DNA of 62,118 bases from an uncultured Selenomonadales bacterium (lineage in GTDB: Bacteria > Bacillota > Negativicutes > Selenomonadales > Selenomonadaceae): contig CAMNEX010000001.1 of NCBI GenBank assembly GCA_946536825.1, positions 1 through 62,118 on the forward strand, given 5' to 3'. Shown here in pieces: positions 8,980 to 62,118 of this stretch. The position numbers and the translations under genes are program-made. The notes under the pieces are model-generated. The model was not told where the DNA came from. It was given only the letters and a program-made list of their open reading frames with translations, and ran no database searches. How positions within the stretch are numbered: position 1 is the first letter of the stretch; each line of letters starts with the position of its first letter.

Positions 8980-9013
8980 GGGGCGCGAAAAATTTTTTGG
9001 AAGGAGATTTTCA

Positions 9014-18576: not shown

Positions 18577-19744
18577 TGTTATACACTCCTTTTCCTAAAC
18601 TGTGAAAAATTTTTTCTTGAGACTTAATAAATTCCTGCCTGAAGGAAATGACATGCTCGCCATAAACAAGCCCTTTATTTTCAATCGCCGCAATCAGCGA
18701 CTTATCATAATCCGTCGTAAGCACAAGGTGTGGCAACTCCTCGCGAGTTGTATCGCGGATTAAATCGCGGAAATTTTCTTCGTCATAAATAAAAATCTTG
18801 TCGGCAAGAAAATTTTTCTCCCTCAATAACCCTGCCAAAATTTTCATTGATTCGGGCGAACGTATGACGCGGACGGAGGCGAAAAATTTTTTCGGCAGAT
18901 ATTCAAGAAGGGATTCTCCGCGCTTAATTCTTCTAAGCAACCGTTCAAATGCCAATTTTATAAGCGTAAGGGACATCATATTTGCTTCATAATCTTGATT
19001 AGCCATTTGAGAGCGGAGCGGACGCAAATCATAGCCGAGTTGCGAAAAAACTTCAACATAAAAATCCGCGTTAAAATTATGCCAGTTATGACAACCAAAA
19101 GGCAAATTCCCGCCCAGTTTTTTTACACAGCGTTCGGGATACCATTCCATTGAAAAAGCTTTGGCGACTTTGACGGGCGCGGTGTGGAAATCAACTTCAC
19201 TTGCCGCACCGCATAAGGCGAAGAACGTGTCTTCTATAAATTTTTGAGGAAGTTTATCCCAATCCGAAGAACATTTTGTCAAAAGTTTGTGGCAAGCCTT
19301 GACTTTGCGAAGAGAAAAGCCGCCGTTGCCGACTCGCGGCGTTTTTTTTATTTTCACAGTGCGATAACTCGAAGCATTCCAAGAAGGATAAGGCCACGGC
19401 GCACCGATGTAATCATAACCGAGCGAGCAAAAATCCTCCAGCGCGTCATAGAAAACAAAGGCGTCGAGCTGATAAATCAGTATGTAATCGAAAATCAAAA
19501 ACGGTTCATAGAAAAACGGCGACAACAAAAGTTGGCTGTAGGTTTCGCGACTTTGGAAATATTGCGGGTGGAATTGAACAAGCATATCGCCGGGCTCAAG
19601 GTAAGAAATTTTTTTATCTTGAGGCGCGACAAAGATAATCGGATACCTTCCCAAAACTTTTCTGACCTGCGCGAGCGAAATTTTTTCCAGCTCGTTAATT
19701 TCTTCTTTGTAAATCGGGATAACCACAGCGACATTTGCTGACAA
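18566..19744 (-). CDS. DUF5672-like putative glycosyltransferase, tandem paralog B
   Basis: 392 aa. Motifs …YDYIGAPWP… and …VGNGGFSLRKV…. TTG start after AAGGAG. Overlaps the cupin start by 11 nt. Confidence 0.55.
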   Translation of the reverse strand: MSANVAVVIPIYKEEINELEKISLAQVRKVLGRYPIIFVAPQDKKISYLEPGDMLVQFHPQYFQSRETYSQLLLSPFFYEPFLIFDYILIYQLDAFVFYDALEDFCSLGYDYIGAPWPYPSWNASSYRTVKIKKTPRVGNGGFSLRKVKACHKLLTKCSSDWDKLPQKFIEDTFFALCGAASEVDFHTAPVKVAKAFSMEWYPERCVKKLGGNLPFGCHNWHNFNADFYVEVFSQLGYDLRPLRSQMANQDYEANMMSLTLIKLAFERLLRRIKRGESLLEYLPKKFFASVRVIRSPESMKILAGLLREKNFLADKIFIYDEENFRDLIRDTTREELPHLVLTTDYDKSLIAAIENKGLVYGEHVISFRQEFIKSQEKIFHSLGKGVYNNGN

Positions 19745-19750
19745 AATTTT

Positions 19751-20908
19751 TCACTCCTTGCCCAAGCTATGGAAAATTTTTTCTTGAAACTTAATAAACT
19801 CTTTCCTGAAGGAAATGACATGCTCGCCGTAAACAAGCCCTTTATTTTCAATCGCTTCGATTAAAGACCTGTCATCATTTTCAGCGATTATCAGATGCGG
19901 CAGTTTTTCGCGAGTCACGTCGCGGATTAAATCGCGGGAATTTTTTTCGTCATAAATAAAAATCTTGTCGACAAGAAAAATTTCCTCCGTCAACAGGTGC
20001 GCCAAAAGTTTCATGGCGGCGGGCGAACGTATGACGCGAATTGAAGCGAATTTTTTTGCAGGCAGATATTGCAGGAGAGTTTTATTTTTGAGGTCGCGAA
20101 TAAGCCGCTCCATTGCAATCATTTCCAAGGAACGCGGCAAAAACCATTCGTAATCGTTCGTATGCATTTGAGAGCGGAACGGGCGCAAGTCGTAGCCGAG
20201 CTGAGCAAAAAGTTCAACGTAAAAATCCGCGCTGAGCTTCGTCCAGCCGTGGCAACCAAAAGGCAAATTCCCGCCAGATTTTTTTAAATAGCGGTCGGGA
20301 TAATGTTCCATTGCAAAGAGATTTGCGACTTCGACGGGCGCAGAATGAAAATCAAAATTTTTATCCGCTCCGCAGTAAGTAAAAAAGCTATCCTCGGAAT
20401 CGCTTACAACGCCGTACAACGCGAAAAAGCTGTCTTGTGCAAGGTTATTTTCCCAATTCGGCAGAAAAGAACATTCGGTTAAAAGTTTATGGAACGCTTT
20501 GACTTTGCGAAGAGAAAAGCCGCCGTTGCCGACGCGTTTAACGCCCCACGAGACAGGCCACGGCGCACCGATATAATCATAACCGAGCGAGCAAAAATCC
20601 TCCAGCGCGTCATAGAAAACAAAGGCGTCGAGCTGATAAATCAACATGTAATCGAAAACCAAAAACGGTTCATAGAAAAACGGCGACATTAAAAGTTGAC
20701 TGTATGTCATGCCGCTTTGGAAATATTGCGGGTGGAATTGAACGAGCATATCGCCGGGCTCAAGGTAAGAAAATTTTTTACCTTCGGGCGCGACAAAGAT
20801 AATCGGATACCTTTCCAAAACTTTTCTGACTTGCGCGAGCGAAATTTTTTCGAGGTCGTCAATTTCCTCTTTGTAAATCGGAATAACCACAGCGACATTT
20901 GCTGACAA
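19751..20908 (-). CDS. DUF5672-like putative glycosyltransferase, tandem paralog A
   Basis: 385 aa. The first ~118 aa are ~90% identical to paralog B and share its motifs. TTG start after GGAAGGA. Confidence 0.55.
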   Translation of the reverse strand: MSANVAVVIPIYKEEIDDLEKISLAQVRKVLERYPIIFVAPEGKKFSYLEPGDMLVQFHPQYFQSGMTYSQLLMSPFFYEPFLVFDYMLIYQLDAFVFYDALEDFCSLGYDYIGAPWPVSWGVKRVGNGGFSLRKVKAFHKLLTECSFLPNWENNLAQDSFFALYGVVSDSEDSFFTYCGADKNFDFHSAPVEVANLFAMEHYPDRYLKKSGGNLPFGCHGWTKLSADFYVELFAQLGYDLRPFRSQMHTNDYEWFLPRSLEMIAMERLIRDLKNKTLLQYLPAKKFASIRVIRSPAAMKLLAHLLTEEIFLVDKIFIYDEKNSRDLIRDVTREKLPHLIIAENDDRSLIEAIENKGLVYGEHVISFRKEFIKFQEKIFHSLGKE

Positions 20909-32073: not shown

Positions 32074-33396
32074 CTAGACGCTTAAGCCCGCCGCCTTGAT
32101 TAAAATAAATATCGCAAGCCCGACAACCGAGCCGACGATTGAACCGTTTAATCTTATCCAGATAAAATCTTGCTCCGCCTTGTCGTAAACCAAATTGTTT
32201 AATTGCTCCTCGGTCAGCCGCTCCAACGCCGATTTTGCGACCGTCCCGACAAGCGGTTGCGCGTGAAGTGCCGCCCGCGCTGTCAATTCGTCGACAAATT
32301 TTTCAAAGGCATTTTTCGCTGCAGAATTTTCCCGCAAAAGCCGCAAAAGATTGTCGTATTCTTCATTGAATATGCCTATCAGCAGAACGCCCAAACTTTT
32401 TGTCTGCAATTTTTTTGGCGAACGCGCCCTTTCCAAACTTTCTTCCAAATCGGTTGTCGTTATCTGATTTTCTATGTGAATCAGCGCGAGTTCTATCGCC
32501 TCTTCCAACGGCAATTCGTTCGCCGCGTCAATTTGTATTCGCTCGACCAAATCTTTAAATTCGGGCGTGTCGCTCAGCTCCGAAATTTTTTTGCGGCATT
32601 CGTTAAAGGTTCGGCGGTGTATTTGCGTATCCAATGACAATTCGTCCAACAATTTCAACAGCTGAACTTGCATTATCCGCGCCGCTTCCTCAAAATTCAC
32701 CAAATCCAACATTTGCGCGAGCCCCGCCATTAAAATCGAAAAGCCGCCCATGTTTTTTGTTTTTTCTTCCGCGTATTTTTCTAAAACATCTTGAAGTTTG
32801 TCGCAAGTTTCGGGCTTTGCCGCCGTCCGACGCATTGCCTTGATTATTCCGATAAAAATTTCTTTGTCCTTGCCGGTTTTTTTGAACTTCGCGCCGAAAT
32901 CGTTTATAAAATTCTGCGCGGGCAAGTCGCGAATAATCCGCCGCAATTCGTTGGCAATTTCCTTGGAACGCTTTTCCTTATTCTGCGCCGTGACAAATTT
33001 TTTTACAACGTTGAAAAGTTCCCCGACAATAATTTTGCGCGTCGAATCCTTTGCAAGATAATCGACAATGCGCGGCATAAGTTTAAAATCGCCGAGCTTT
33101 TTAAAAATATTTCTTCGCGAAAAAAATTCCTGCTGAACCATTACTACCGACGCTTTTATAAAATCTTTTCTTCTGCGCGGCAAAATCGCCGTGTGAAAAG
33201 GAAAGCCCAGCGGTTTTTTGAAAAGTGCCGTCACCGCGAACCAGTCCGCTATTCCGCCGACGAGTGCCGCCTCCGTGACAAATAAAAAACCTTCCGAGAC
33301 GACGCTTCCCGGAAACGTAATTTTTATTCCGACTGCCGCCAAAAAAAACAACGCGGCGCAAAGTAAAGTTGTATCCGCCGTGTTCCACCTGTTCAA
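32074..33396 (-). CDS. DUF445-family membrane-associated protein, paralog 1
   Basis: GGIADWFAVTALFKKPLGFPFHTAILPRRRKDF near the N-terminus and IRLNGSIVGSVVGLAIF at the C-terminus. TTG start after GAGAGGTG. Confidence 0.7.
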   Translation of the reverse strand: MNRWNTADTTLLCAALFFLAAVGIKITFPGSVVSEGFLFVTEAALVGGIADWFAVTALFKKPLGFPFHTAILPRRRKDFIKASVVMVQQEFFSRRNIFKKLGDFKLMPRIVDYLAKDSTRKIIVGELFNVVKKFVTAQNKEKRSKEIANELRRIIRDLPAQNFINDFGAKFKKTGKDKEIFIGIIKAMRRTAAKPETCDKLQDVLEKYAEEKTKNMGGFSILMAGLAQMLDLVNFEEAARIMQVQLLKLLDELSLDTQIHRRTFNECRKKISELSDTPEFKDLVERIQIDAANELPLEEAIELALIHIENQITTTDLEESLERARSPKKLQTKSLGVLLIGIFNEEYDNLLRLLRENSAAKNAFEKFVDELTARAALHAQPLVGTVAKSALERLTEEQLNNLVYDKAEQDFIWIRLNGSIVGSVVGLAIFILIKAAGLSV

Positions 33397-33411
33397 AAAT
33401 TTTCACCTCTC

Positions 33412-34806
33412 TCAACGTGCAAAATTTTCTATGACTTGAGCAACGAGATATAAAAACATGCCGACAATCGCGCCGCAAACCGAACCATTGATACGAATCA
33501 TTTGCAAATCGTCCGCAACATGCCCCTCAACAAATTCCGTCAATTCGTCGTCACTGAACTTATCCAATCGCTCGCGAATCATCAGCGGTATTTGTCCGCG
33601 ATATTCTTCCAACAAATTTTCCACAAAATCTTTTATCATCGCGTCAAATTTTTTCTGGAACTCTTGATTCTGTATGAACTCGTCAATCTTCGCGTCAACC
33701 AGAAAGTCCGCCGCGTCCTTCCAAATTACCGGCTTGCGCTCAATTTCCACAATCCGCGACACGTTCGGATTAGCCGCCTGTTGCCGACGCAGTTTTTCCA
33801 AAATTTTCGGGTCGGTCTCGCCTTTAACATTAACGTCAAGCCACGTCTTTATAAAATTCTCCGAGTCAAATTTCTGCAGGAAAAGATTTTTAAGGTCCTC
33901 AAGAAATTTTTTCGTGTTCAGACTGCCCATCGCCGATTTCACGAAGCCGCCAAAAGTTTGAATCATTTCGTCCGCCGCCCGCGCAGTTTCGCTGTCAACC
34001 ATGCCCGTCATATTTAAAACCTTTTCCGCATCGTTAATCTTTTTGTCGACAGTCTCGTTGAGGATATTTAAAATTTTTTCGTCCGTCAAATCCATACTCG
34101 ACAAAACCAACGCCCGCCCCGCCGACTCGCCTTCGTAAGCCTCGCGCAATTCGGTTATCTTCTTCAAAATTTCTTCCTGCATGTGTTCGCTTTGCAAAAT
34201 TTTGTGTCCCGTGTCGAAAAGCGCGATTAAAATTTTTCGGCTGTGCTTATCGCTCGTCACGACTTTTATCACCGCGGCGAAAAGTTTTTCCGCGTCCAGA
34301 TTTTTAATTTCGTTCTCCAAAATCGGCGCAACGTCCCGCGAAATTTTCTTTGTATCCAGTTCGCTGAAAAGTTCATTTAAAACTTCCCGAACCAAAACTT
34401 TTGTCTTGGCGCGTCCGTTATTCTGCTCAAAATAATCAATCAAAAGTTGCGCGGTATTTTCGTCGCGAACGGTTTCCATAATATTTTTCGTGTTCAAAAG
34501 GTCGGTGCCGACAAATTCGACAATCGCGTCCATAATTCGTCCGCGATTGCGCCTCAAAATTTCCGTGTGAAAACCAATTCCCAACGGCTTGCGGAAAAGT
34601 GCAGTCACGCCGAACCAGTCAGCCATGCCGCCGATTGTCGCCGCCAAAAATCCATGATTCAAAAGTCCGAGCGCAAAATTTCCGCCCGCGCCCGACAAAA
34701 TAAATCTGAGCGGAGAAATTTCCGGCAAAGTCGAGACCGCCAAAAGTGCACTCGCCGCCAAAGTTGCCGTCGCCTTTGTTTTGTTTTGCAAAAAGTTCAC
34801 CTCCAT
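33412..34806 (-). CDS. DUF445-family membrane-associated protein, paralog 2
   Basis: GGMADWFGVTALFRKPLGIGFHTEILRRNRGRI and IRINGSVCGAIVGMFLY. The true start may be TTG 34791, since the listed ATG-GAG-GTG looks like its RBS. Confidence 0.7.
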   Translation of the reverse strand: MEVNFLQNKTKATATLAASALLAVSTLPEISPLRFILSGAGGNFALGLLNHGFLAATIGGMADWFGVTALFRKPLGIGFHTEILRRNRGRIMDAIVEFVGTDLLNTKNIMETVRDENTAQLLIDYFEQNNGRAKTKVLVREVLNELFSELDTKKISRDVAPILENEIKNLDAEKLFAAVIKVVTSDKHSRKILIALFDTGHKILQSEHMQEEILKKITELREAYEGESAGRALVLSSMDLTDEKILNILNETVDKKINDAEKVLNMTGMVDSETARAADEMIQTFGGFVKSAMGSLNTKKFLEDLKNLFLQKFDSENFIKTWLDVNVKGETDPKILEKLRRQQAANPNVSRIVEIERKPVIWKDAADFLVDAKIDEFIQNQEFQKKFDAMIKDFVENLLEEYRGQIPLMIRERLDKFSDDELTEFVEGHVADDLQMIRINGSVCGAIVGMFLYLVAQVIENFAR

Positions 34807-48631: not shown

Positions 48632-48701
48632 GCCGCCCGAAAAAGTAATTCTATTCGGTACAAAAAGTTATCTACGAGGTAACCACATAAAAAATTTTTT
48701 G

Positions 48702-48741
48702 TGTTATAATCTTTCAGCTGAAAAAATTTTTTGGCTGAAAG
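48702..48741 (+). promoter_or_regulatory. Extended -10 promoter (TGtTATAAT), immediately followed by a perfect inverted repeat (candidate operator)
   Basis: TG at 48702-48703 and TATAAT at 48705-48710. Inverted repeat CTTTCAGC (48711-48718) / GCTGAAAG (48734-48741) flanks the palindromic core AAAAAATTTTTT. Confidence 0.45.
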
Positions 48742-48764
48742 ATTTTTTTGACGGGAGGATTTTT

Positions 48765-49748
48765 GTGAACAGCTTTGATAAATTTGATGATATAGAACAT
48801 TTGGTTGAAGGGGTTCTCGTCGGGTTGCGGGCGCGAAAGGAAATTGAGCCGCTCCGAAAAAGAATTTCCGAGCTTGAAAAAGCGATAGAGGCTTTCCGAG
48901 AAGAGTGCATTAAACTGCGCGAGGAAAGAGATTTTGAAGCGGATTTGTATAAGGCTCTCAAAAATGATTACGACGAAATTAATCAGCAACTCGACGACGA
49001 ACAAAAAATTTCTTCGGAGCTTAAACGTTCGGTAAAAGCTTTGAGCGAGGAGCGCGACAAGTTGCGCGACGAAAAGGATTTTGAGACAAAGCTTTATAAA
49101 ATTCTCAGAAAAGATTATGACGAAGCCAATCAGCAACTCGACGAAGAGCAAAGAATTTCTTCGGAGCTTAGGCGTTCGGTAAAAACTTTAAGCGGCGAGC
49201 GCGATAATCTGCGCGATGAAAAAATTTCTCTGGAAAAGCAGGTCAAAACTCTGACGAATCGCCTTGACGACGCGAATAAAAAAATTTCCGAATCGGAAGC
49301 GAAACGCCGCGACGCCGAAGGCACCGCAAATTTCTATCGCGACACTTACGGCGAACTCGACGCGGCTTATAAAATTTACTCGACGCTGAACGGCGAGACG
49401 CGCTTTGATTTGGCGGGGATTTTCGGGGCGGGCGATACCGCAAAAGGTTTTTTGAGCGGCGCGGTTCAGGAGTCGCATTTGAATTCTTTCTGGGATTATG
49501 TCAGCCGCCACCCCGACGAAGAAAATTTGCAACGCCTGTTCGATTTTTGCTTTGCGGCGTTAAATCTCGGATTTCGCGAGGCTCCCTACACGCGGCTAAA
49601 CGTCGCCTGCGGAAATGATTTTGATGATGAATTCATGCGGCGCACTTCGCAAAGTCCGCAAATGGGCAACGTCGTCCGCGTCGTGTTTCAAGGCTATCGT
49701 TATTCTTCCGGCAACGTCGTCAAGAAAAGCGTTGTCGAATTGGGTTGA
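48765..49748 (+). CDS. Coiled-coil protein with a GrpE-like C-terminal domain (candidate nucleotide-exchange factor)
   Basis: GTG 48765, 6 nt after GGGAGG. ~190 aa of heptad-rich helix including two 49-aa repeats. C-terminus CGNDFDDEFMRRTSQSPQMGNVVRVVFQGYRYSSGNVVKKSVVEL follows the GrpE beta-domain pattern. Confidence 0.45.
   Translation: MNSFDKFDDIEHLVEGVLVGLRARKEIEPLRKRISELEKAIEAFREECIKLREERDFEADLYKALKNDYDEINQQLDDEQKISSELKRSVKALSEERDKLRDEKDFETKLYKILRKDYDEANQQLDEEQRISSELRRSVKTLSGERDNLRDEKISLEKQVKTLTNRLDDANKKISESEAKRRDAEGTANFYRDTYGELDAAYKIYSTLNGETRFDLAGIFGAGDTAKGFLSGAVQESHLNSFWDYVSRHPDEENLQRLFDFCFAALNLGFREAPYTRLNVACGNDFDDEFMRRTSQSPQMGNVVRVVFQGYRYSSGNVVKKSVVELG
48915..49208 (+). repeat. Two in-frame 147-bp (49-aa) tandem repeats inside the coiled-coil gene
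   Basis: LREERDFEADLYKALKNDYDEINQQLDDEQKISSELKRSVKALSEERDK versus LRDEKDFETKLYKILRKDYDEANQQLDEEQRISSELRRSVKTLSGERDN. A third unit begins but diverges. Confidence 0.8.
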
Positions 49749-53117: not shown

Positions 53118-53465
53118 ATGGCAGATTTTTTGACGGAGCGAACGAAATTTTACTGCGTGGCGGCTCCGGCGGTGAATTTCTCAATTTCAATGTCGGGTAA
53201 AGTCACGCACCGAGGCGCAAAAGTTTTGACGACGGCGGCGAAGTTGTCAGGCAAAGGACTTTGTCCGAAATTAACGGCGTTTATGCAATCTCCGCAACAG
53301 TGCCAATTCAAACAAACGCCGTGGCTGAATTTCGATTTAAAATGCAAAGCCGAATCAAAAAATTTGTTGATGGCGGATTCCTTTTGTAGCTGTCCTGTAC
53401 CTATATGCGCCGGCACGGTCGTGAAAGTCCGCTTGGCAAGGGCGCAAGGATTTAAACAAGCATAA
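53118..53465 (+). CDS. PAAR-like (DUF4280-like) small Cys-patterned protein
   Basis: 115 aa. FYCVAAP…GKGLCPKL…CQFKQTPW…SFCSCPVPICAGTVVKV resembles the DUF4280 Cys/Trp spacing. ATGGAGG RBS. Confidence 0.45.
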   Translation: MADFLTERTKFYCVAAPAVNFSISMSGKVTHRGAKVLTTAAKLSGKGLCPKLTAFMQSPQQCQFKQTPWLNFDLKCKAESKNLLMADSFCSCPVPICAGTVVKVRLARAQGFKQA

Positions 53466-53477
53466 GGAGGAAAATTT

Positions 53478-55730
53478 ATGGCGAACACATGGGATAAAAT
53501 TCCGCAAACACATCGGGCGATTTTGTTCGAGGAGTTCACTCACCCCGCTGACACTTCGGCGAAAAATTTATACAGTATTTTAGACCTATACGACGACTTC
53601 GATCCAGGCAATAATGAACTGCACAAAGACATTGAGAAAAAGCTTGAGGTTCGGAGTTTCAACGAATTTTTGGAAAAGTTTCAGCCGAAAGTTTTTGAGT
53701 GCGTCACGGGCACGGAAAACGACGTTCCGTTTTTTCAGTACACCGACGACCCAATGGAGGCAAAGAAAAATAACGGGCGCGAAATAAAAATAACCTGTCA
53801 CGCCTATTACGAAATGCTCGTGAACATGTACACCCAAAAAGGCGACAGCGGCATTGCAAACATTGAATTCGATGATGAAAAAATTCGCGAGATACTCACG
53901 CCCAAGCGCGAGATTGAAGCCCTTTACGATACGCGCCAAAAAATTCCCCTGCTCATGGAAAAATATGATGAACGACTTGCCAAAAATGAAAATGCCGCGC
54001 CCATTGCCAAACGTCTGAAGGCAATTCGCAGAAACGCCCTTGACCAGCTGAAAAATCCCAGGACGTTAATGGCAATCAGCCTTGACGATACCGAGAGGAA
54101 AATTAAGGCGGCAGATGAAAAACTTCTGCAGTTGAAGGCGGCAGAATCAAATAGCGACGACAAGCCAAAAAAATTACTCAGCGGACGCGGCGGTTTCGAT
54201 CAAGACGGACATTGGATTTTAATTCCCGCCAAGGCAAGTACGCCCGACTCCGACGAAAGTAGCGACGCAAAAAGCGACCCCGACGGCGACAACGCAAACA
54301 AATTTGCCAAAATAATTCAAGGCGATTTAAATAAACACGCGGCGGACGAAAGTAATTTCACGAAAGCTTTGGTTGTCTCGGCTTACACCGGCAGAGAACT
54401 TACCAATCCGTTTGAGAATAAGGACAGCACCGCGCTCGCCGTATATCGCGCCGAACTCGTCGAGAATAAAAAAATTATTCAAAACAGTTTCAAGCAGGCG
54501 CAGGAAGCTTTTATAAAAGTTCTGTCCGACAGCGTCCGGAAAATGTTGTGCGTGAAAATTTTCTTCGATCATGCCACGGTTGGCAAGGGCGGCGATGACG
54601 CAAAACTCCCGAAGGTCGGCTTAATCGTCGCGAATTGCAAGGCGGATAAACTCATTGACAATAAAATCAAAGGCAAATTTGAAGCTACAATGCAACATTT
54701 GGGCTTGGGCGTCAGCGACAAAAATAAACTCTGGTTCGCGATTTTGCCGCATGTCTTTCACGAAGATTTTTCGGACGGCGGCGGCGCAAGTCAAAATGCC
54801 GATCTTGATGACGATTTATATGACGACGACGACAATCAAGATATAACTTCTGCGAACGGCACGGATTTTTCTGCGGCGAAGTCGATTTTAAGAATCATGG
54901 AAGATTGCAAGATTATGACGGTTTTTAACTTCGCGTCCACCAGTCCTTCAATGACTTTTTCGGGCATTAACTCGGAAGTCATAAAAAAGCTTGAGGACGA
55001 ACTTGAGCCGCTCAATTACGAACACGCGGTTTACGCCCTGCCGAATTTTACGATTATGAAAGAAGGGACCGTTTCTCTCGGCAAAAAAAATGAAACCGAC
55101 GCGCCGAAAATTTCCGTCCCCGCAATGTACATTGACGCGGCGTATGTGGCGGCGGGTTTGCTTATCGCCGCTCAGCAACCGGAATTTTGGATAAACAACG
55201 GCTTTAAGGACGCCTTCATAAAAGAAAATTCCTGCGTTCGCATTGACCTTGAGGAAGACAAAATTACCGCCAAATTGCTGACGAAATTTAATCGCGAACG
55301 CTCAATCGCCTGGAGCGCGGACGTTATCAATGCTTTCACGGCGAATCGTTTCGGCTTTGCCTTCGACGGCGATCAAAGATACGACGAACGAGCGGACAGA
55401 TTTATTAACCGCACTTACATTCTTAACGCCAGAACGCTCAAGCGCAAGGACGGCGAATATCAAGCGATTTTCCGCACGCTCATGAAAGATTTTATCAAAG
55501 CTTATTTGAAAACTTACGGCTCAAAACTCAAAGCTCCGCAACGCGACGATTTCCTTAACAAAGTCGTTGCCGAGTGGAAGCAGCAATCCAAAAAATATAA
55601 ATCTAAGGGCGATATAATCAATCTCATGCTCCGAGACGGCGAAGATATTTCCAAGGAAGAAAATACCAGCAATTTGAAAGTTGAACTTTCGGGCGGCGAG
55701 GAAATGCTTGACGTTGAAATTGTCGATTAA
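53478..55730 (+). CDS. Candidate fused TssB/TssC-like contractile sheath protein
   Basis: N-terminus has a TssB-like segment KKLEVRSFNEFLEKFQPKVFECV. The C-terminal ~330 aa follow the TssC-like order of hydrophobic blocks (…ILRIMEDCKIMTVFNFAS…, …AVYALPNFTIM…, …MYIDAAYVAAGLLIA…, …TYILNART…). Two acidic low-complexity linkers lie between. AAGGAGG RBS. Confidence 0.4.
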   Translation: MANTWDKIPQTHRAILFEEFTHPADTSAKNLYSILDLYDDFDPGNNELHKDIEKKLEVRSFNEFLEKFQPKVFECVTGTENDVPFFQYTDDPMEAKKNNGREIKITCHAYYEMLVNMYTQKGDSGIANIEFDDEKIREILTPKREIEALYDTRQKIPLLMEKYDERLAKNENAAPIAKRLKAIRRNALDQLKNPRTLMAISLDDTERKIKAADEKLLQLKAAESNSDDKPKKLLSGRGGFDQDGHWILIPAKASTPDSDESSDAKSDPDGDNANKFAKIIQGDLNKHAADESNFTKALVVSAYTGRELTNPFENKDSTALAVYRAELVENKKIIQNSFKQAQEAFIKVLSDSVRKMLCVKIFFDHATVGKGGDDAKLPKVGLIVANCKADKLIDNKIKGKFEATMQHLGLGVSDKNKLWFAILPHVFHEDFSDGGGASQNADLDDDLYDDDDNQDITSANGTDFSAAKSILRIMEDCKIMTVFNFASTSPSMTFSGINSEVIKKLEDELEPLNYEHAVYALPNFTIMKEGTVSLGKKNETDAPKISVPAMYIDAAYVAAGLLIAAQQPEFWINNGFKDAFIKENSCVRIDLEEDKITAKLLTKFNRERSIAWSADVINAFTANRFGFAFDGDQRYDERADRFINRTYILNARTLKRKDGEYQAIFRTLMKDFIKAYLKTYGSKLKAPQRDDFLNKVVAEWKQQSKKYKSKGDIINLMLRDGEDISKEENTSNLKVELSGGEEMLDVEIVD

Positions 55731-55745: not shown

Positions 55746-56174
55746 ATGATTTATTACGAATTGAAAATTGAGTCCTCAAGCGAGACTATCGAGATTAACG
55801 AAGACAACGCGATTGATTATGCAGATGTTGTGCTTGACACGCTCGACAACAGCACGCAGAAAAAATCCAGTTCACTTTTGGCGCGAATGACCATTCAAGG
55901 CAACATAACTTCTTCGATTAATGACAGCCTGATTAAAATTTCGGAATGGGCTCGCGACCTCAAAAAAGAGACGACTTATCGCAAGGTAACTTTGGTGATA
56001 AAGGAGGACAAAGCGGGCGTTATCCTGCGGACGTATGAAATTCCCGATATGTTTGTCTGCGACTACAGCGAAATTTACCATACGCCCAAAGAAGGCACCG
56101 ATCCGGAGCCGTTTCAATTCGTGCTCTCTCTCAATCAAAGAGAAAATAAGCTTGAAGAATTCAACACGTATTGA
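55746..56174 (+). CDS. Hcp/TssD-like tube protein
   Basis: 142 aa. The pattern …ARMTIQGNITSS…LIKISEWA…YRKVTLVIKEDKAGVILRTYEIPDMFVCDYSEIYH…PFQFVLSLNQ… mirrors Bacteroidetes-type TssD proteins. Sits between the sheath-like and VgrG-like genes. Confidence 0.5.
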   Translation: MIYYELKIESSSETIEINEDNAIDYADVVLDTLDNSTQKKSSSLLARMTIQGNITSSINDSLIKISEWARDLKKETTYRKVTLVIKEDKAGVILRTYEIPDMFVCDYSEIYHTPKEGTDPEPFQFVLSLNQRENKLEEFNTY

Positions 56175-56189
56175 TAGGGAGAAATTTTA

Positions 56190-57593
56190 ATGAAAGTTCG
56201 TGGCTTGGGCGAGGAAAATTATTTTGAAAAAATTTTGGTCGGCAAGGCGGCTAATCGGCACAGCTTTTGCGAATTCAGACAGCGCACGCCCGAAGAAAAT
56301 TTTTCTGTTTATCAAAATGCAGTAGGTAAAGAAATAGGCGTCGAAACGGACAGCGGACGCCCAATTTTTTTTGGCGAAGTGACGGAAGTTTTAATCGAGC
56401 AAACCTACCACGGCAATTACGTCGAAATTCGCGCCGAATCAACTTCGCTGAAAACCGACGAGGAGCCGCAGACGCGCATTTTCCAAAATCCCGAAAAAAA
56501 ATTCGGCGAAGTTTTGAACTCTGAACGCTTGAAACTCAAAAACTGCGCGGTTGCGCTTGACGATAAGTTGAAGTCGCAACCTTGCAAAGAAATTATTCTG
56601 CAGGACGCCGAAACAAATTTTGAGTTCGTGAAAAGATTGGCGGCGTGGCAGGGGCGGCGCGTTTGGGTAAAGGACACGTGGCAAGGGAAATGCGAATTAA
56701 AAGTTGCGGCTTGCTCCGACGAATCGGCGAATAAAATTTCTCAAGACGAAATCATCAGCTTGAAAGTCGGTCGGCGCGGGAAAATTCGCACAGCCAAACT
56801 TGTCGCGCAGAAATATTTTGAGCTCGGTCGCATTTTGAGTTTGGGCGATAATCCCTGCAAATATTTGATCGTTGGGCTTGAAATTTATCAGGAACGCGGC
56901 GTCGACAGAATGTGCTACGCTTTGGAGGAATTTAAAAATCTTGAGCCGGCAAAACTTTGCTCCGCGACGCCGATTAAGCTTAAGGCGACAGTCAAAGACA
57001 TAACCGACAAAGAAAATTTCGGACGGCTTCAAGTGCAATTCGAGATTGAGGACAAGGACGAAAAAAAATCGTGGTTGCCTTATCGGACGCCTTACAGCGG
57101 AATAATTTTTTTGCCGGAAATCGGCGAGACTGTCGAAATTTTTTACACGCAGGGCGAATGCTACATTGCCTCGACTTTGCGGACGAAAACTCTTGACGAC
57201 GAATTTAAAAACGTCAAGGATAAATTTATCGGCAATAATCGCAAGCAAAGAATTTTTTTCCGCGAGAAATCGCTTGAGATTAAGTCGCTTGAAACTTCGA
57301 TTTTCATGGACGAAAAAAAAATTGTCCTGAGCGTCGGCACAAATAAAATCGTTATGGACGAGCAGGGAATATCGATAAAAACGGGCGGCAAGCTCAATGC
57401 GGAAATCGCCAAGGAAGTTTTGCTGAAGGCGGGCGAATCCTTAACCGAGCAAATCGGCAAAGATATTTCGTCGAAGGCGGGCGGAAAAATTTCTGTCGAT
57501 AGCGGCGGCAATACTTCGTTCAAAGTCGGCGGGAAATTCGAGGCGGAAGCGAGTTCTGCAAAAATTAAAGGTAGCAGTGTCGAGTTGGGATAG
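56190..57593 (+). CDS. VgrG-like spike protein (gpD/gp27-like plus gp5 OB-fold plus short beta-helix), no effector extension
   Basis: OB-fold hallmark …ATVKDITDKENFGRLQVQFEIEDKDEKKSWLPYRTPYSGIIFLPEIGETVEIFYTQGE…IAS. C-terminal repeats of the K-x-GGK type. Confidence 0.7.
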   Translation: MKVRGLGEENYFEKILVGKAANRHSFCEFRQRTPEENFSVYQNAVGKEIGVETDSGRPIFFGEVTEVLIEQTYHGNYVEIRAESTSLKTDEEPQTRIFQNPEKKFGEVLNSERLKLKNCAVALDDKLKSQPCKEIILQDAETNFEFVKRLAAWQGRRVWVKDTWQGKCELKVAACSDESANKISQDEIISLKVGRRGKIRTAKLVAQKYFELGRILSLGDNPCKYLIVGLEIYQERGVDRMCYALEEFKNLEPAKLCSATPIKLKATVKDITDKENFGRLQVQFEIEDKDEKKSWLPYRTPYSGIIFLPEIGETVEIFYTQGECYIASTLRTKTLDDEFKNVKDKFIGNNRKQRIFFREKSLEIKSLETSIFMDEKKIVLSVGTNKIVMDEQGISIKTGGKLNAEIAKEVLLKAGESLTEQIGKDISSKAGGKISVDSGGNTSFKVGGKFEAEASSAKIKGSSVELG

Positions 57594-57604: not shown

Positions 57605-58696
57605 ATGGAAATGACGCGGCAGGAGGCGGAAAAATTTTTAAAGCGAGTCGAAAAGGAATTAAACGCCGAGCAAAAGGAAACTTTAAAAAAATTGAAGAGC
57701 CGCGTAGAAGAAGAATTGCGCGGCGCGGAAAAATTTATCGAGGTTGTGACGGACGTGGAGGAGACAGAAAATCTTTTGCCGCTTGAAGTCGGCGACGGAA
57801 TTTTTTTCGCTAATCAGCCGCCGCTTGAAACAGGCGAGCCGAAAACGCTTCCTTACGAGCCGTTTTTTTTATGCGTACCTTACGAAGAATTTTTTTCCTT
57901 ACTGAATAAAGATTTTCGCGGCGCGGGCTTTACCTATCAGCTCAAGCCGGATTATCGTTTTGTCGAGGTGGAGGAAAAAATTTATCGGGCGGCGAGCCTT
58001 TACAATGTGCCGTTGCAAATTTATTCGCCGTATGCAAGGCGGGCGGTCGACATTTGCATTTTCGGCGAAACTACCGAGCTTAATTTCAAGCTGTCGGAAA
58101 ATAATTTGGCGGGCAAATTGCTTACGGATAAAAAATTTTATTGGAATGTCGAAATAGATTCTGTGTCGTGGGATTCAATGCAGACGGTCGGGAAGCTTTA
58201 TGAATATCGCTGTTCGGCGGAGGATTTAAGTTTTGTCCTGCCCTGCCGCGATTCTTCGCTTGACGCCGATATAGAAGTTAGGCGAGCCGACGGGCAAATT
58301 ATTTTTCGGACGCCGCGAGAATTCCCGACGGAAAAGGGCGAGCGCATAAAAATTTTGCCGATAAAAAATAAAATTGCGTCGAGAATTTTGAGCAAAAAAA
58401 GACTTCGGACGCAAGGCGATATTGAGTTTGTCTTGAGCGGACTTTCTCGCGACGGCTATTCCTGTCACTTCGGGCAATTCGGCGACGCGGCGGAAAATAT
58501 CACGCCATACACGGCGGAGCATAAATATTTTTCTTCGGCGGACGAAAATTTGTTGCGGGCTAAAAAATATCTGCCGCAATGCACGGTTAAATTTGTCGGC
58601 GCGGAATTTTTCCTGGCGGATTATGCGAACTTTGTCCTGAAATTTTTGGAGGAAAATTATCCTGAATTTAATTGGGCGGGTGAGCGCGATGGATAA
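57605..58696 (+). CDS. Hypothetical protein (363 aa), operon member
   Basis: TAGGAGG RBS, 11 nt after the VgrG-like stop. Helical N-terminus (EKFLKRVEKELNAEQKETLKKLK), then a mixed domain. No motif recognised. Confidence 0.6.
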   Translation: MEMTRQEAEKFLKRVEKELNAEQKETLKKLKSRVEEELRGAEKFIEVVTDVEETENLLPLEVGDGIFFANQPPLETGEPKTLPYEPFFLCVPYEEFFSLLNKDFRGAGFTYQLKPDYRFVEVEEKIYRAASLYNVPLQIYSPYARRAVDICIFGETTELNFKLSENNLAGKLLTDKKFYWNVEIDSVSWDSMQTVGKLYEYRCSAEDLSFVLPCRDSSLDADIEVRRADGQIIFRTPREFPTEKGERIKILPIKNKIASRILSKKRLRTQGDIEFVLSGLSRDGYSCHFGQFGDAAENITPYTAEHKYFSSADENLLRAKKYLPQCTVKFVGAEFFLADYANFVLKFLEENYPEFNWAGERDG

Positions 58697-59153
58697 GGAA
58701 GAATTATTCGTCACGGCGGAGGAAGTCGCAAGAGATTTTCGCGGCGGCTTAAAAAATCTGCGCGGGAATTTTATCGAAGAACTTTTACGCGAGGAATTGA
58801 ATCAAGGTTATTACGGCGCGGAGGCTAAAAAAATTTTCGGCGCATTGACGCAAGCCGAGCAAGATTTAATTTTGCGGGCACTGAAACTCCAAGAGCAATG
58901 CGAAGGTCGGCAATTAAAATTCATGTTGGCGTTGAAAAGTCTTTTCCCGCACAGCGAAATTTATTTTCACACCGGAAAATTTTTGTTGTGTTTGCCCGAA
59001 GAAAAATCAGCGGCGGCGTTGGAGAAAATCGAACTGATAAAAATTTTGTTTATGGCGGCGGGCAATTCGGAGCTTGAAATTTATTTCGGGGAACATTTCG
59101 GGGTATTCGGCACGCCGCGGACAATGCGCCTCGACGAAATGATTTTGTATTGA
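58689..59153 (+). CDS. Hypothetical protein (~154 aa), translationally coupled
   Basis: Overlaps the upstream stop by 8 nt (or by 17 nt if GTG 58680 is used). Mostly helical. No motif recognised. Confidence 0.55.
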   Translation: MDKEELFVTAEEVARDFRGGLKNLRGNFIEELLREELNQGYYGAEAKKIFGALTQAEQDLILRALKLQEQCEGRQLKFMLALKSLFPHSEIYFHTGKFLLCLPEEKSAAALEKIELIKILFMAAGNSELEIYFGEHFGVFGTPRTMRLDEMILY

Positions 59154-59167
59154 ACGGAGGTTTTTTT

Positions 59168-60742
59168 ATGGGAGTGGCAATCGGTTTGGACTTCGGCACG
59201 ACAAATTCCGTTGTGACTTACGAAGATAAGGACGGGAAATTGAAAAGCTTTAAAGTAAACGGCTCGCCGCTTATCCCCAGCGTGATTTTTTTCAAGACGC
59301 GGGAAGATTATCTTATCGGGCAAAAGGCGTTGAACAGGAGCGGGCAAAATCCCGCGGGCGCAATTTCCGGCTTCAAAACCAAACTCAACGAAGACAATAT
59401 GCCCTATGAAGTGATTTTATCAGACGGCTCAAAGTTTAAAATTCTGCCGAAGGTCGCCGTAAAATATTTTTTGAACAAATTGATGAGCGAAGTCCAAGAA
59501 TATTTGCTGAAGAAAAGAATTGCCGACGCGGCGATTGACCGCGCAGTCATAACCGTGCCGACAAAATTTAACGACAAGGCAAATCAAGCAATAAAATCGG
59601 CGGCGGCGCAGGCAATGAATTTGAGTTTCAAACAAATAAAACTCGTCTACGAGCCGACAGCGGCGGCAGTTGCGGCGCATAGTGACGACGAACCCGACGC
59701 AAAAAATTTATTGATTTACGACTTCGGCGGCGGGACTTTCGACGTTTCCTTGATTCAAAAGGACGGCAAAGTTTTCAAGCAGATAAAAACCGACGGCGAC
59801 CCGAAATGCGGCGGCGATTTACTCACCGGCATATTGGCGAAAAATTTGTTGGAAGGCGCGAACGACGAATACGGAACGGATTTTCCGTGGGATTTTGAAG
59901 ACCTCGACGAAGACAGCCTCAGCGAACTTAAATATAAAGAAAATATTGCGGCGATTGTCAAAGAGGCGAACACGGCGAAAATTTATCTCAGCGAAAATAC
60001 CGATACGGACGTTACGTTTCCGTTTTGGATATCGGAATCGAGGAGCGAAAATTACAATGTCAACGTGAGCCGCAAAGATTTTGAAAGAATGATTCGCAAG
60101 GAAATAAATCACACGGCGGAAATAACGCGGCGCGTTGTCGACAGCGACGAGGCAAAAGCGGCGGGCGGCATTGACAAAATTATAATTGCGGGCGGGTCGG
60201 GGCAAATTCCCATGATTCGCGATGTCTTAAGGGATAAACTCGGAAATTTCTCAATCAATCGCTCGGAAGAAATTTCGACGCTGATAAGTCGCGGCGCGGC
60301 GATTCTGGCAAAAAATATTGAGTCGCTGGAAAATGTGACTGCGCAAAAAACTACGGTGCAGTTGGGAATTTCTTCGACACAAGGCATGGGCTACGGAATT
60401 TTTCAAACGATTATCGAGGCGGAGCGCGATCTTCCCTGCGAAAATTCTTGCGATTTCCGATTAATGGAAGATAATCAGCGGCTGTTGAAAATTTCTTACT
60501 ACGAGCGCGACATTAAAAATTATCCCCGCGCCGAACGCATTGACGACGCGGGAATTACGCAAGTTGACGAACTCGAAGTGGAATTGCCGCCGGGGCTGAA
60601 AAAATCTGACACCGTGATTAAAATTACTTTCGCCGTGCAAAAGGATTCAAGTCTTGAACTTTCCGCCGAGGTTTTGAGGAACGACGGAAGCAAAATCAGC
60701 GAGGAGAAACTTAAAGTCAACAAAGTTTCCGATTTGTTCTAA
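59168..60742 (+). CDS. Hsp70-family protein (NBD plus beta substrate-binding domain, no helical lid or EEVD)
   Basis: GLDFGTTNSVV, IYDFGGGTFDVSLI, DGDPKCGGDLL, IIIAGGSGQIPMIRD. SBD-beta-like end …TVIKITFAVQKDSSLELSAEV…. ATG 59168 after GGAGG. Confidence 0.8.
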   Translation: MGVAIGLDFGTTNSVVTYEDKDGKLKSFKVNGSPLIPSVIFFKTREDYLIGQKALNRSGQNPAGAISGFKTKLNEDNMPYEVILSDGSKFKILPKVAVKYFLNKLMSEVQEYLLKKRIADAAIDRAVITVPTKFNDKANQAIKSAAAQAMNLSFKQIKLVYEPTAAAVAAHSDDEPDAKNLLIYDFGGGTFDVSLIQKDGKVFKQIKTDGDPKCGGDLLTGILAKNLLEGANDEYGTDFPWDFEDLDEDSLSELKYKENIAAIVKEANTAKIYLSENTDTDVTFPFWISESRSENYNVNVSRKDFERMIRKEINHTAEITRRVVDSDEAKAAGGIDKIIIAGGSGQIPMIRDVLRDKLGNFSINRSEEISTLISRGAAILAKNIESLENVTAQKTTVQLGISSTQGMGYGIFQTIIEAERDLPCENSCDFRLMEDNQRLLKISYYERDIKNYPRAERIDDAGITQVDELEVELPPGLKKSDTVIKITFAVQKDSSLELSAEVLRNDGSKISEEKLKVNKVSDLF

Positions 60743-60755
60743 GGAGGTATTTATT

Positions 60756-61499
60756 TTGTCGTTATGGGAATGGATTAAAAATTTACTTTATCGCCTGCGC
60801 GGCGGCAAGCCGAAACGTTCGCCAAAAAAAATTATTCAAAGTCACAGACCGCAAATTAAATCGGAACCGCCGCCGTGGAAGTCCGTTTATTCGTCGCCAA
60901 TCTCTGAACCGCGGCGGGAAGAAATTTCCGAGCCAAAGAAAGAATTCGTCTTGGACATAAGAAACGAAGCCGACATGGAAAATTATTTGGGCAAGTTGAG
61001 AAATCGCGGTGCCTTTGAAAGTTTTCGGCGCGATTTTCCATTGCCGTGGCTGAATACACATTTATCCAGAGCGGACGACGTTTTGTCGAAAATCGCTTTG
61101 CTTAAAGATTTTGATGAGGAGGAATTTAATTCAAAATTGGCGAGCAAGGTTTGCAATTTGTCAAAACACATGCTCGCCATTTACAGAGACGCGGAAAATT
61201 CTCCTCAGCTCAACGAAAACTCGCGGCAACTGCTAAGAAGTCTTGTCGAAAATTATCTTTCGGAAATTGGCTTGACGAAAAAAATTTTTAAAGTCGGCGA
61301 CGCTTACAACGATTGGGCAGATTTGAATCTGGATACTTCTTCTGCCGAATTTATCGCTACCGATAATCGGACTTTGGGCTCGACCCTTGCCGCAATAAAA
61401 ATTCAACCGCATGTAATTTCTTATCGGAACGAGTTCGGCGAAATTAAACAGCTTATTTTCGGCGGCTTGTGCAGAGCTTACAAATTTAAGGAGGTTTGA
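60756..61499 (+). CDS. Hypothetical protein with a basic/Pro-rich N-terminus and a possible GrpE-like C-terminal end
   Basis: TTG 60756, 8 nt after AAGGAGG. C-terminus VGDAYNDWADLN…LAAIKIQPHVISYRNEFGEIKQLIFGGLCRAYKF loosely follows the GrpE beta-domain pattern. Confidence 0.35.
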   Translation: MSLWEWIKNLLYRLRGGKPKRSPKKIIQSHRPQIKSEPPPWKSVYSSPISEPRREEISEPKKEFVLDIRNEADMENYLGKLRNRGAFESFRRDFPLPWLNTHLSRADDVLSKIALLKDFDEEEFNSKLASKVCNLSKHMLAIYRDAENSPQLNENSRQLLRSLVENYLSEIGLTKKIFKVGDAYNDWADLNLDTSSAEFIATDNRTLGSTLAAIKIQPHVISYRNEFGEIKQLIFGGLCRAYKFKEV

Positions 61500-61502
61500 G
61501 AG

Positions 61503-62118
61503 ATGGCTCTTTTCGGATACGAATTATATACCAACGATGACCGGCGCGAAATTAAAAGTTGGATTAAAAGCAGCGATGACAAATTGCGTGGGGACATGAA
61601 AAATCTGGACGCTTTCGTAAACCAACAACTTAGTCAGTATGACGCGGAGTTTAAATCTCAACTGAATATTTTTCAATCTGAACTGAACAACGAAATTTCT
61701 TCTTTAAAACGAGATATTACTTCGCTCAGAATTTCTTTTGCGTCGGCAGTGGAAGTCGATGCGCTCAAAAAAGAGGTCGGCACTTTGAAATATGAAATTG
61801 ATTCTTTGAAACCGTCAATCGAAACCGACGTTCTCAAAAAAGATATGGTCGCGCTCAAGGCTGAACTTGCCGTTTTGAAAAATATTCCAAAATCTTCGAC
61901 AAGCTCCGACGCGCTTAAACAAGAACTCGTCGCACTTAAAGGCGAACTCGCCGCGTTAAAACAATCTCCCGCGCAGTCCGCCGAAATTGCCGCGATTAAA
62001 TCCGAACTCGCCGCGCTTAAACAATCTCCCGCGCAGTCCGCTGAAATTGCCGCGATTAAATCCGAACTCGCCGCGTTAAAACAATCTCCCGCGCAGTCCG
62101 CTGAAATTGCCGCGATTA
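61503..62118 (+). CDS. Coiled-coil protein with 20-aa tandem repeats (3' end outside the window)
   Basis: ATG 61503, 3 nt after the previous stop and behind AAGGAGG. Not in the ORF track because no stop is reached. Sequence is heptad-like …LKRDITSLR…LKKEVGTLKYEIDSLK…, then (ELAALKQSPAQSAEIAAIKS)n. Confidence 0.7.
   Translation, partial: MALFGYELYTNDDRREIKSWIKSSDDKLRGDMKNLDAFVNQQLSQYDAEFKSQLNIFQSELNNEISSLKRDITSLRISFASAVEVDALKKEVGTLKYEIDSLKPSIETDVLKKDMVALKAELAVLKNIPKSSTSSDALKQELVALKGELAALKQSPAQSAEIAAIKSELAALKQSPAQSAEIAAIKSELAALKQSPAQSAEIAAI
61944..62118 (+). repeat. Near-perfect 60-bp in-frame tandem repeat, at least 2.9 copies, cut by the window edge
   Basis: Units start at 61944, 62004 and 62064. 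Only 2-3 synonymous differences between copies. Confidence 0.9.

Follow-up and report, generated by a model that had tools for sequence, protein, structure and literature searches.

A candidate single-chain contractile sheath in an Hsp70-associated gene cluster of Selenomonadaceae and other Bacillota

A stretch of 62,118 nucleotides from an uncultured Selenomonadales bacterium of the family Selenomonadaceae (assembly GCA_946536825.1, contig CAMNEX010000001.1, positions 1 to 62,118, forward strand), hereafter the window, contains at 53478..55730 an open reading frame (ORF) for a protein of 750 residues, which probably serves as sheath subunit in a contractile injection system (CIS) that resembles phage tails and is unrecognised by public annotation. 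This reading is carried by the sheath fold of the predicted structure and the tube fold of the protein encoded next to it, together with a gene order and a conservation that extend across the whole family.

In the mechanism proposed here, the 750-residue protein would polymerise around a tube made of a 142-residue Hcp-like protein, the tube being capped by a VgrG-like spike that a DUF4280 (PAAR-like) tip would sharpen. Contraction of the sheath would drive out tube and spike together with their cargo, and Hsp70-like ATPases encoded in the same cluster probably handle either the assembly of the sheath or its disassembly after firing.

Conservation of the sheath-like protein

The ORF described in the first-pass annotation, a model's reading of the letters of the window, lies on the forward strand and begins with ATG, and the peptide strings quoted there all occur at the expected places in the translation. 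On the N-terminal side, KKLEVRSFNEFLEKFQPKVFECV corresponds to residues 54-76 and IEFDDEKIREILTPKREIEALYDTRQKI to residues 129-156. The C-terminal strings comprise ILRIMEDCKIMTVFNFAS (470-487), AVYALPNFTIM (517-527), MYIDAAYVAAGLLIAAQQPEFW (550-571), RFGFAF (624-629), TYILNARTL (646-654), FRTLMKDFIKAYLKTY (665-680) and LKVELSGGEEMLDVEIVD (733-750).

A word-indexed search returned 83 full-length homologues, nearly all of 720-757 residues and with 97-100% of the query aligned, none of which contains a Pfam domain. When 1.84 billion cluster representatives were searched exhaustively with a profile, 462 clusters (50% identity) matched at E<=1e-3 and 243 at E<=1e-30. These counts identify 53478..55730 as a real conserved gene rather than a chance ORF. 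Since nearly all of the best 150 of the 462 cluster representatives have 700-800 residues and match from end to end, the single-chain form is the rule in this family and not a local fusion or an assembly artefact. The term "fusion", applied to the protein in the first-pass annotation, is thus not borne out, the architecture being uniform over hundreds of clusters. An N-terminal strand with the motif QTHRxILFEEF is conserved in the family. With regard to the inter-subunit "handshake" of terminal strands in contractile sheaths, the window's protein shows this N-terminal strand (residues 11-20) and C-terminal strands (residues 723-744).

None of the sequence libraries recognised the protein. It has no meaningful match in Pfam, NCBIfam or PHROGs; the Pfam Phage_sheath models do not match it, and a Pfam scan of 45 family members at E up to 10 gave no sheath family among the matches listed. 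Searches of PDB chains with phmmer, using the single sequence, and with a profile of the 45 sequences returned noise only, and tblastn against phage (50,697 records) and plasmid (72,556 entries) collections found nothing. In public databases the homologues are called "hypothetical protein" or, inconsistently, "transcriptional regulator", with no domain match behind these names.

Predicted structure of the sheath-like protein

An AlphaFold2 model built on the 45-sequence alignment is confident, with a mean predicted local distance difference test (pLDDT) score of 84.4 and a predicted template modelling (pTM) score of 0.84. It consists of an alpha/beta module (residues 1-130), a helical module (residues 134-366) whose length varies from 204 to 276 residues across the family, and a large alpha/beta region (residues 370-750). 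The protein and its parts are as follows:

53478..55730 (+): sheath-like protein, single chain of 750 residues; ORF with ATG start, fold matches obtained on the model
53478..53867 (+): N-terminal alpha/beta module (residues 1-130), candidate TssB-like part; secondary structure of the model, marginal hhalign match to TssB
53877..54575 (+): helical middle module (residues 134-366), containing a small beta-hairpin (237-249) and a helix of 50 residues (317-366); from the model
54237..54275 (+): disordered acidic loop 1 (residues 254-266); pLDDT below 50
54774..54851 (+): disordered acidic loop 2 (residues 433-458), with a DDDL(F/Y)D-like motif; pLDDT below 50
54585..55727 (+): C-terminal alpha/beta region (residues 370-750), inferred sheath core; from the length of the Foldseek alignment

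When the model was compared with the PDB by Foldseek, the single high-probability match among the 50 listed was the contracted sheath of the Photorhabdus virulence cassette (PVC; 6j0c_A, E=6.4e-3, prob 0.99), aligned over 303 columns including gaps, the PVC chain having 354 residues. No T6SS (type VI secretion system) sheath chain was found among these 50 matches. In the library of predicted viral structures, prob 0.94-1.00 was reached by eight of the top nine matches, five of them named as tail sheath or sheath tube and three without an informative name; the sheath of a haloarchaeal virus ranked 18th in this library, and gp178 of Bacillus phage G was among the BFVD matches. The named high-probability matches in both structure libraries are sheaths only, with no other family represented. 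The structural check proposed in the first-pass annotation returned a PVC sheath and no confident match to a named unrelated family, and its reading of the protein as a sheath is supported both by these PVC and myophage matches and by the succession of sheath, tube, spike and tip genes described below. Because an alignment of 303 columns is too short to span the helical module of 233 residues, and among the parts of the chain the C-terminal region alone could accommodate it, we infer from the model that residues 370-750 hold the sheath core.

The tube protein and the gene cluster

The gene immediately downstream of the sheath-like gene encodes a protein of 142 residues, p142, whose AlphaFold model (pLDDT 84.4, pTM 0.80) retrieved tube or tube-like proteins throughout: all 50 of the listed PDB matches are Hcp, PVC, antifeeding prophage (AFP), other CIS, phage tail tube or tube-like proteins (prob 0.99-1.00, TM 0.43-0.57). 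It was structure that settled the identity of the tube, because p142 has no sequence-family match and hhalign comparison of the tube family with Hcp gave no signal. The tube family comprises 2078 clusters at 90% identity. Next to the sheath-like gene are encoded proteins that resemble the Hcp tube, the VgrG spike and the PAAR tip.

These genes form part of a co-directional cluster that begins at 48699, right after an oligopeptide ATP-binding cassette (ABC) transporter operon, and continues beyond the end of the window. Its order is coiled-coil protein, 1099-residue ATPase, PAAR-like tip, sheath, tube, VgrG-like spike, p363, p157, 530-residue Hsp70-like ATPase, 247-residue protein and coiled-coil repeat protein. 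The genes flanking the sheath-like gene are listed below, related loci being cited here and hereafter by L numbers:

48699..49748 (+): coiled-coil protein of 349 residues, first gene; coiled-coil-type matches only, same position in L011 and L001
49745..53044 (+): 1099-residue protein with an Hsp70/actin-like ATPase core; weak HscA/DnaK matches at residues 549-648
53118..53465 (+): DUF4280 (PAAR-like) tip protein, 115 residues; Pfam DUF4280 E=8.7e-4, below cutoff
55746..56174 (+): inner-tube protein p142, 142 residues, Hcp/extracellular CIS tube fold; AlphaFold model and Foldseek
56190..57593 (+): VgrG-like spike, 467 residues; Pfam Phage_base_V E=8.8e-8, weak Phage_GPD and DUF2345
57605..58696 (+): p363, conserved protein of 363 residues, candidate baseplate part; kept in 60/63 loci, no Pfam/PDB sequence match
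58680..59153 (+): p157, conserved protein of 157 residues, candidate baseplate part; kept in 61/63 loci, no Pfam/PDB match
59150..60742 (+): Hsp70-like ATPase, 530 residues; Pfam HSP70 (E=2.2e-52), model positions 1-486 of 599 covered
60756..61499 (+): conserved 247-residue protein of Selenomonad-type clusters; no family match, follows the Hsp70 gene in L001, L011, L020, L021 and L033
61503..62118 (+): coiled-coil repeat protein, running off the window end; translation, gene call in L089

The Hsp70-like ATPases that the first-pass annotation had placed beside the sheath-like gene are real, the 530-residue protein matching Pfam HSP70 strongly and the 1099-residue protein showing weak HscA/DnaK matches. 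The latter bears the motifs VGIDFGTKST and DFGGGTTD and is kept upstream of the sheath-like gene in Selenomonad-type loci. For the 467-residue spike, NCBIfam returned VgrG_rel, TssI and vgr_GE, all below cutoff. The window's own 115-residue tip protein carries no toxin domain.

The p363 and p157 proteins, which are nearly universal in related loci, are obvious candidates for baseplate components. PDB profile searches and Pfam scans of both families were empty, and hhalign against TssE gave no signal (P=0.3 for p157). In the window, p157 starts with GTG within the end of p363 and is about 75 residues shorter at its N-terminus than most relatives (about 230 residues); in L011, the closest relative, it is likewise short, at 133 residues. 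The public names attached to three of these families look like misannotations, namely "membrane-associated protease 1" for the tube, "normocyte-binding protein" for p363 and "iron-dependent peroxidase" for p157, and the same holds for "transcriptional regulator" as a name of the sheath-like protein.

Towards the end of the window's cluster, L011 and L001 go on with genes for a coiled-coil protein and for two further Hsp70-like ATPases; in relatives, the position of the ORF at 61503 is occupied by a coiled-coil protein of 470-566 residues, after which further Hsp70-like genes follow. The truncated ORF closes with three copies of a 60-nt tandem repeat (61936-62118, 94% matches), translated as a series of "AALKQSPAQSAEIAAIKSEL" units.

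Other components of known systems were also sought. Pfam and NCBIfam detected no TssA, E, F, G, J, K, L, M or ClpV/TssH in the ORFs of the window's cluster or in the loci of relatives, and Pfam, NCBIfam and PHROGs sequence scans of the cluster found nothing of the extracellular CIS (eCIS) gene set (gp25/gp6/gp7-like baseplate, tape measure, fibres, cap, AAA+). No lysis function was recognised in the cluster.

The rest of the window, as far as scanned, consists of ordinary chromosomal genes, including those for phosphoenolpyruvate carboxykinase, SufB, a flagellar hook-like protein and ABC transporters. Far from the cluster, a 1245-residue ORF at 8978-12715 (+) has an MreB/Hsp70-type ATPase signature (Pfam MreB_Mbl E=2.7e-6) and the phosphate-binding motifs IGVDFGTSST and DIGAGTTD, of a kind common to the 1099-residue protein of the cluster; it is a second giant protein of the actin/Hsp70 fold in the window. 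Two tandem paralogue pairs also lie outside the cluster, one of DUF5672 (392 and 385 residues) and one of DUF445 (464 and 440 residues), at 18566-20908 (-) and 32074-34806 (-).

Distribution and locus types

A scan of one genome per species found relatives of the sheath-like protein in 177 species-level genomes. The closer relatives (30-80% identity) belong to Selenomonadaceae, including Quinella, Anaerovibrio lipolyticus and many rumen metagenome-assembled genomes (MAGs), as well as one Desulfovibrionaceae MAG, and a cluster look-up added Megamonas hypermegale as a further carrier. At 23-28% identity, full-length relatives were found in Clostridium (beijerinckii, neonatale, lundense and others), Paenibacillus, Aneurinibacillus, Ruminococcus flavefaciens, Lachnospiraceae, Halanaerobacter, Sporomusa, Pelosinus and one Fusobacterium MAG. 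The members outside Bacillota, L020 (the Desulfovibrionaceae MAG) and L054 (the Fusobacterium MAG), could reflect horizontal transfer or binning error; the L020 locus is of the Selenomonad type and encodes a PAAR-like fusion protein of 630 residues.

In total, 79 loci were analysed by ORF calling and iterated hidden Markov model searches, core genes being counted in the 63 loci with at least 9.5 kb of downstream sequence and PAAR-like genes in the 59 with enough upstream sequence. The tube gene starts less than 400 nt downstream of the sheath-like gene in 71 of 75 loci. The conserved core further includes p363 (60/63), p157 (61/63) and an Hsp70-like gene (62/63), and a VgrG-like gene was detected in 21/63 loci and a PAAR-like gene in 19/59.

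Two locus types can be distinguished. The Selenomonad/Ruminococcus type has the order PAAR, sheath, tube, VgrG, p363, p157 and Hsp70, followed by coiled-coil proteins and more Hsp70-like genes. In three loci of this type, those of Anaerovibrio lipolyticus (L033, 7668-9993), a metagenomic relative (L001, 7639-10014) and Ruminococcus flavefaciens (L035, 8065-9977), the tip gene directly upstream of the sheath-like gene joins DUF4280 (E=1e-7) to an AHH-type nuclease region with a weak match, and an Imm11 immunity gene comes after it. Judged from its domains, DUF4280-AHH with Imm11 is a polymorphic toxin-immunity pair, so the usual job of the system is probably to kill competing bacteria through delivery of antibacterial effectors.

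The Clostridium/Paenibacillus type begins with the sheath-like gene and the tube gene, the latter usually present twice, and continues with a J-domain protein, two FHA proteins, a PP2C phosphatase and a PP2C-related membrane protein of 612 residues before p363, p157 and an Hsp70-like protein of 770-880 residues. In Clostridium beijerinckii the J-domain protein (DnaJ E=1.3e-25) adjoins the tube genes. The five-gene insert between the tube genes and p363 was seen in L042 (12232-22142, Clostridium beijerinckii) and is also present in L051, L052, L053 and L047 (Clostridium, Paenibacillus, Sporomusa); one of its two FHA-domain proteins is membrane-bound. This gene set recalls the Fha/PppA threonine-phosphorylation control of the Pseudomonas H1-T6SS. 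Not all members of the family need be secretion systems, and loci of the Clostridium type may have another role, perhaps inside the cell.

Relationship to TssB and TssC

The first-pass annotation had proposed a TssB-TssC (VipA-VipB) fusion, of which the contractile-sheath fold is supported and the specific homology to TssB and TssC is not. The two sheath components of the T6SS are separate polypeptides; the protein described here is a single chain, and no split form was seen among the 462 clusters. Neither Pfam VipA/VipB nor NCBIfam tssB/tssC matches it, VipA/VipB is absent from the matches listed for the 45 members, and single TssB and TssC sequences of E. coli showed no similarity to the family in hhalign.

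Profiles of TssB (9 sequences) and TssC (11 sequences) were also compared, both made from ten annotated T6SS loci of E. coli Sakai, Campylobacter, Rahnella, an E. coli plasmid, Ralstonia, Skermanella, Rhizobium, Leisingera and Vibrio. The family entered hhalign as an alignment of 206 sequences, both whole and divided into an N-terminal, a middle and a C-terminal third, with reversed profiles, Hcp and TssE as controls. For TssC the scores (16.3-16.8, P=0.3-0.5) were no better than those of the reversed TssC control (17.0-17.7), so the TssC-like character claimed for the C-terminal half found no support. TssB gave the top result of the 32 comparisons, reversed controls included, with scores of 19.6-20, P=0.02-0.08, a probability of only about 2% and collinearity over 100-125 columns. 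The alignment with the lowest P (score 19.6, P=0.022, 125 columns; controls at most 17.7) joins residues 55-190 with TssB 18-153. It pairs the "IKITCHAYYEML" helix (residues 101-118) with TssB "IDkdNFdxVM" and "F.D..I.EILTPK.E.E" with TssB "L.F.smdDFsP..v..q". The second pairing, of the "EILTPK" region with "DFsP", is the one suggested in the first-pass annotation; KKLEVRSFNEF, which had been matched there to a TssB motif, gives way to residues 101-118, and the "KKLEVRSFNEFLEKFQPKV" motif falls elsewhere in the alignment than on "IDkdNFdxVM". This marginal match is best regarded as a lead and not as a demonstration.

In the TssB/TssC protomer, a helical third domain is formed by the C-terminus of TssB and the N-terminus of TssC. 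A chain that runs from TssB to TssC and a single-chain sheath with an N-terminal extension or a helical insertion would consequently look alike. Three origins are possible, namely an ancestral unsplit form, a secondary fusion and an independent elaboration, which the present data cannot separate.

The acidic loops and the Hsp70-like ATPases

Two acidic stretches reported in the first-pass annotation are present at residues 256-275 and 440-455, and they coincide with the sole two low-confidence segments of the model (residues 254-266 and 433-458; pLDDT below 50). Across the family, loop 1 (alignment span 250-270) is 4-42 residues long with a median D/E fraction of 0.24, and loop 2 (alignment span 430-460) is 9-66 residues long with a median D/E fraction of 0.32. 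An acidic-hydrophobic-acidic motif (e.g., DDDLFD) occurs in loop 2 of 97 of the 206 members, compared with 57 +/- 5.5 (max 71) in composition-preserving shuffles, a contrast inflated by kinship among the 206 sequences. The same 206-member test revealed no enriched motif in loop 1. By its sequence, the loop 2 motif resembles short linear motifs that serve for docking.

In the first-pass annotation the loops were put forward as a possible handle for the neighbouring Hsp70-like ATPases, a role that the present data do not establish. Substrate sites of the canonical Hsp70 type are not acidic but hydrophobic, flanked by basic residues, and an acidic loop is therefore not an obvious Hsp70 client site. 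The idea that the loops serve as canonical Hsp70 substrates was rejected on account of this peptide preference of DnaK and of the variability of the loops in length and sequence.

The gene association of the family with Hsp70-type ATPases is strong, extending to 62 of 63 loci, with several paralogous copies in a locus and, in the Clostridium type, a J-domain protein as well. In the known T6SS, disassembly of the sheath is performed by ClpV or ClpB. Given this analogy and the gene association, Hsp70-driven assembly or disassembly of the sheath would be the most economical hypothesis. The use of ClpB as a chaperone-type ATPase is documented for the T6SS of Francisella (PMC7182274).

Alternative explanations

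Several observations weigh against the identification of the 750-residue protein as the sheath of a contractile injection system. None of the sequence profiles used (Pfam, NCBIfam, PHROGs, PDB) calls it a sheath, and its fold matches are modest, with E-values of about 1e-3 to 1e-2 and TM scores of 0.18-0.37 for a query that is itself a predicted model. Sequence-level scans found no baseplate (TssE/F/G/K, gp25/gp6), membrane-complex, tape-measure, tail-fibre or AAA+ gene in the cluster, and no transmembrane segment is predicted in the window's cluster proteins. The part assigned to Hsp70 derives entirely from synteny, and the Clostridium/Paenibacillus-type loci have no detectable VgrG or PAAR gene and encode FHA and PP2C regulators instead. 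In one rival reading, the protein is not a sheath at all, its fold matches being due to chance or to a shared sub-domain, and that it acts, for example, as a scaffold or regulator together with the Hsp70-like ATPases. Weak Foldseek E-values, low TM scores, the lack of a sequence-level tie to any sheath family, the many loci that have signalling genes and no VgrG and PAAR, and the label "transcriptional regulator" given to homologues in some databases would all agree with this explanation. It is considered improbable, however, as two independent structure libraries return named sheaths and no other named family at high probability, and the near-invariably adjoining gene encodes a clear tube protein; the public names, for their part, are inconsistent and have no supporting domain match. 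A sheath of another kind, belonging to a prophage, a tailocin or an eCIS that is freed by lysis rather than serving cell-anchored secretion, would account for eCIS and myophage sheaths being the closest fold neighbours, for a cluster that encodes no membrane-anchoring protein and for the weak tape-measure-like coiled-coil matches of its first gene. This, too, seems a poor prospect, since tblastn was blank in the phage and plasmid records, no capsid, terminase, tail-fibre, lysis or eCIS AAA+ gene is present among the scanned ORFs, the cluster is flanked by chromosomal housekeeping genes and its order is common to many Bacillota families; moreover, PAAR-toxin/immunity pairs are typical of contact-dependent, T6SS-style antagonism.

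A true fusion of the canonical T6SS genes tssB and tssC, in which the C-terminal helices of TssB and the N-terminal helices of TssC would make up the middle module, deserves more attention and is still unlikely. The succession of an alpha/beta domain, a helical domain and a large alpha/beta core is identical to the order from TssB to TssC, the best of the 32 profile comparisons is that of the N-terminal part with TssB, and the Hcp-like, VgrG-like and PAAR-like neighbours suit a T6SS. An ancestral sheath that was never split, or a helical module inserted independently, would, however, give the same topology. The TssC signal equals that of a reversed profile (P=0.3-0.5), Pfam VipA/VipB is missing from the matches listed for the 45 members, and the 50 listed PDB matches contain the PVC sheath and no T6SS sheath chain. 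As no split form was seen among the 462 clusters and neither another T6SS core gene nor ClpV is detectable, the family is not assigned to TssB/TssC, and the 750-residue protein is best described as the divergent single-chain contractile sheath of an unannotated, Hsp70-associated injection system with a wide distribution in Bacillota.

Biological significance

T6SS-type contractile secretion counts as a Gram-negative trait, and the sheath-like protein and its cluster point to T6SS-like toxin delivery outside this classical setting. Carriers of the sheath and tube families are found among Selenomonads of the rumen and the human gut (Megamonas, Anaerovibrio) and in Clostridium, Paenibacillus and Ruminococcus. 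A wider proposal, advanced only tentatively, is that these loci represent an unrecognised branch of CIS, a T6SS-like toxin machine of Bacillota that also operates in monoderms such as Ruminococcus flavefaciens, whose sheath would owe its assembly or recycling to dedicated Hsp70-like ATPases (joined by a J-domain protein in Clostridium-type loci) and not to ClpV/ClpB, with the exposed, acidic DDDLFD-type loop as docking motif. Should the system work as proposed, contractile injection would reach new types of cell envelope, a second, Hsp70-based and non-AAA+ solution to sheath handling would exist, and the family would offer a testable case of a sheath before, or without, the split into TssB and TssC.

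A survey published in 2021 noted Phage_GPD genes adjoining DUF4280 genes in Gram-positive Firmicutes that have no known eCIS or T6SS genes (PMC8651086), and the sheath and tube identified here would be the missing parts of the system behind those genes. That survey is also the nearest statement retrieved by a search of the full-text literature, subscription-only literature lying outside it, in which no description of such a sheath/tube/Hsp70 system was found; one paper that came up, PMC9424270, had no bearing on it. A paper using the name "membrane-associated protease 1" was likewise not found in full-text literature.

Comparison with known systems

The T6SS, with its sheath proteins TssB/TssC (VipA/VipB; IglA/IglB in Francisella), is similar in the Hcp-like tube, VgrG-like spike and PAAR-like tip encoded nearby, in the toxin-immunity cargo found in relatives of the window locus, and in the order of modules, which runs as in TssB and then TssC when judged by VipA/VipB. 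The genes are also accompanied by one for a dedicated ATPase of the chaperone type, as canonical T6SS genes are by that for ClpV; in Francisella it is ClpB that is used (PMC7182274). The present system differs in that its sheath is one polypeptide rather than two and bears no significant profile similarity to TssB/TssC, in that it has Hsp70-like ATPases and no ClpV, with TssA, E, F, G, J, K, L and M undetectable by sequence scans, and in that it occurs in Bacillota, including monoderm genera.

Among eCIS sheaths (Pvc2 of the Photorhabdus PVC, Afp2-4 of Serratia), the PVC sheath 6j0c_A is the best solved-structure neighbour of the model, the tube proteins of PVC and AFP rank among the top neighbours of p142, and both sheaths are single-chain, as here. 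The 750-residue protein is about twice as long, however, with about 366 additional N-terminal residues that form the alpha/beta and helical modules; the Pfam sheath models do not match it, and no eCIS baseplate, fibre, tape-measure or AAA+ gene is detected in its cluster.

Myophage sheaths such as T4 gp18 and that of phage 812 combine a sheath core with added domains and are the best viral fold neighbours of the model. In phage sheaths, the conserved core consists of N- and C-terminal parts interrupted by inserted extra domains that are mostly beta-rich or Ig-like (PMC9230969), whereas the module added in the present protein is helical, with acidic disordered loops, and the gene has no phage context.

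The cytoplasmic CIS of Streptomyces and the thylakoid-anchored CIS of cyanobacteria are chromosomal as well and neither classical T6SS nor classical eCIS, and their tube proteins are fold neighbours of p142 (9gts, 7b5h). Their sheath and baseplate genes are recognisable by Pfam, and they are not known to have Hsp70 partners. Like the Clostridium-type loci described here, these systems may act inside the producing cell.

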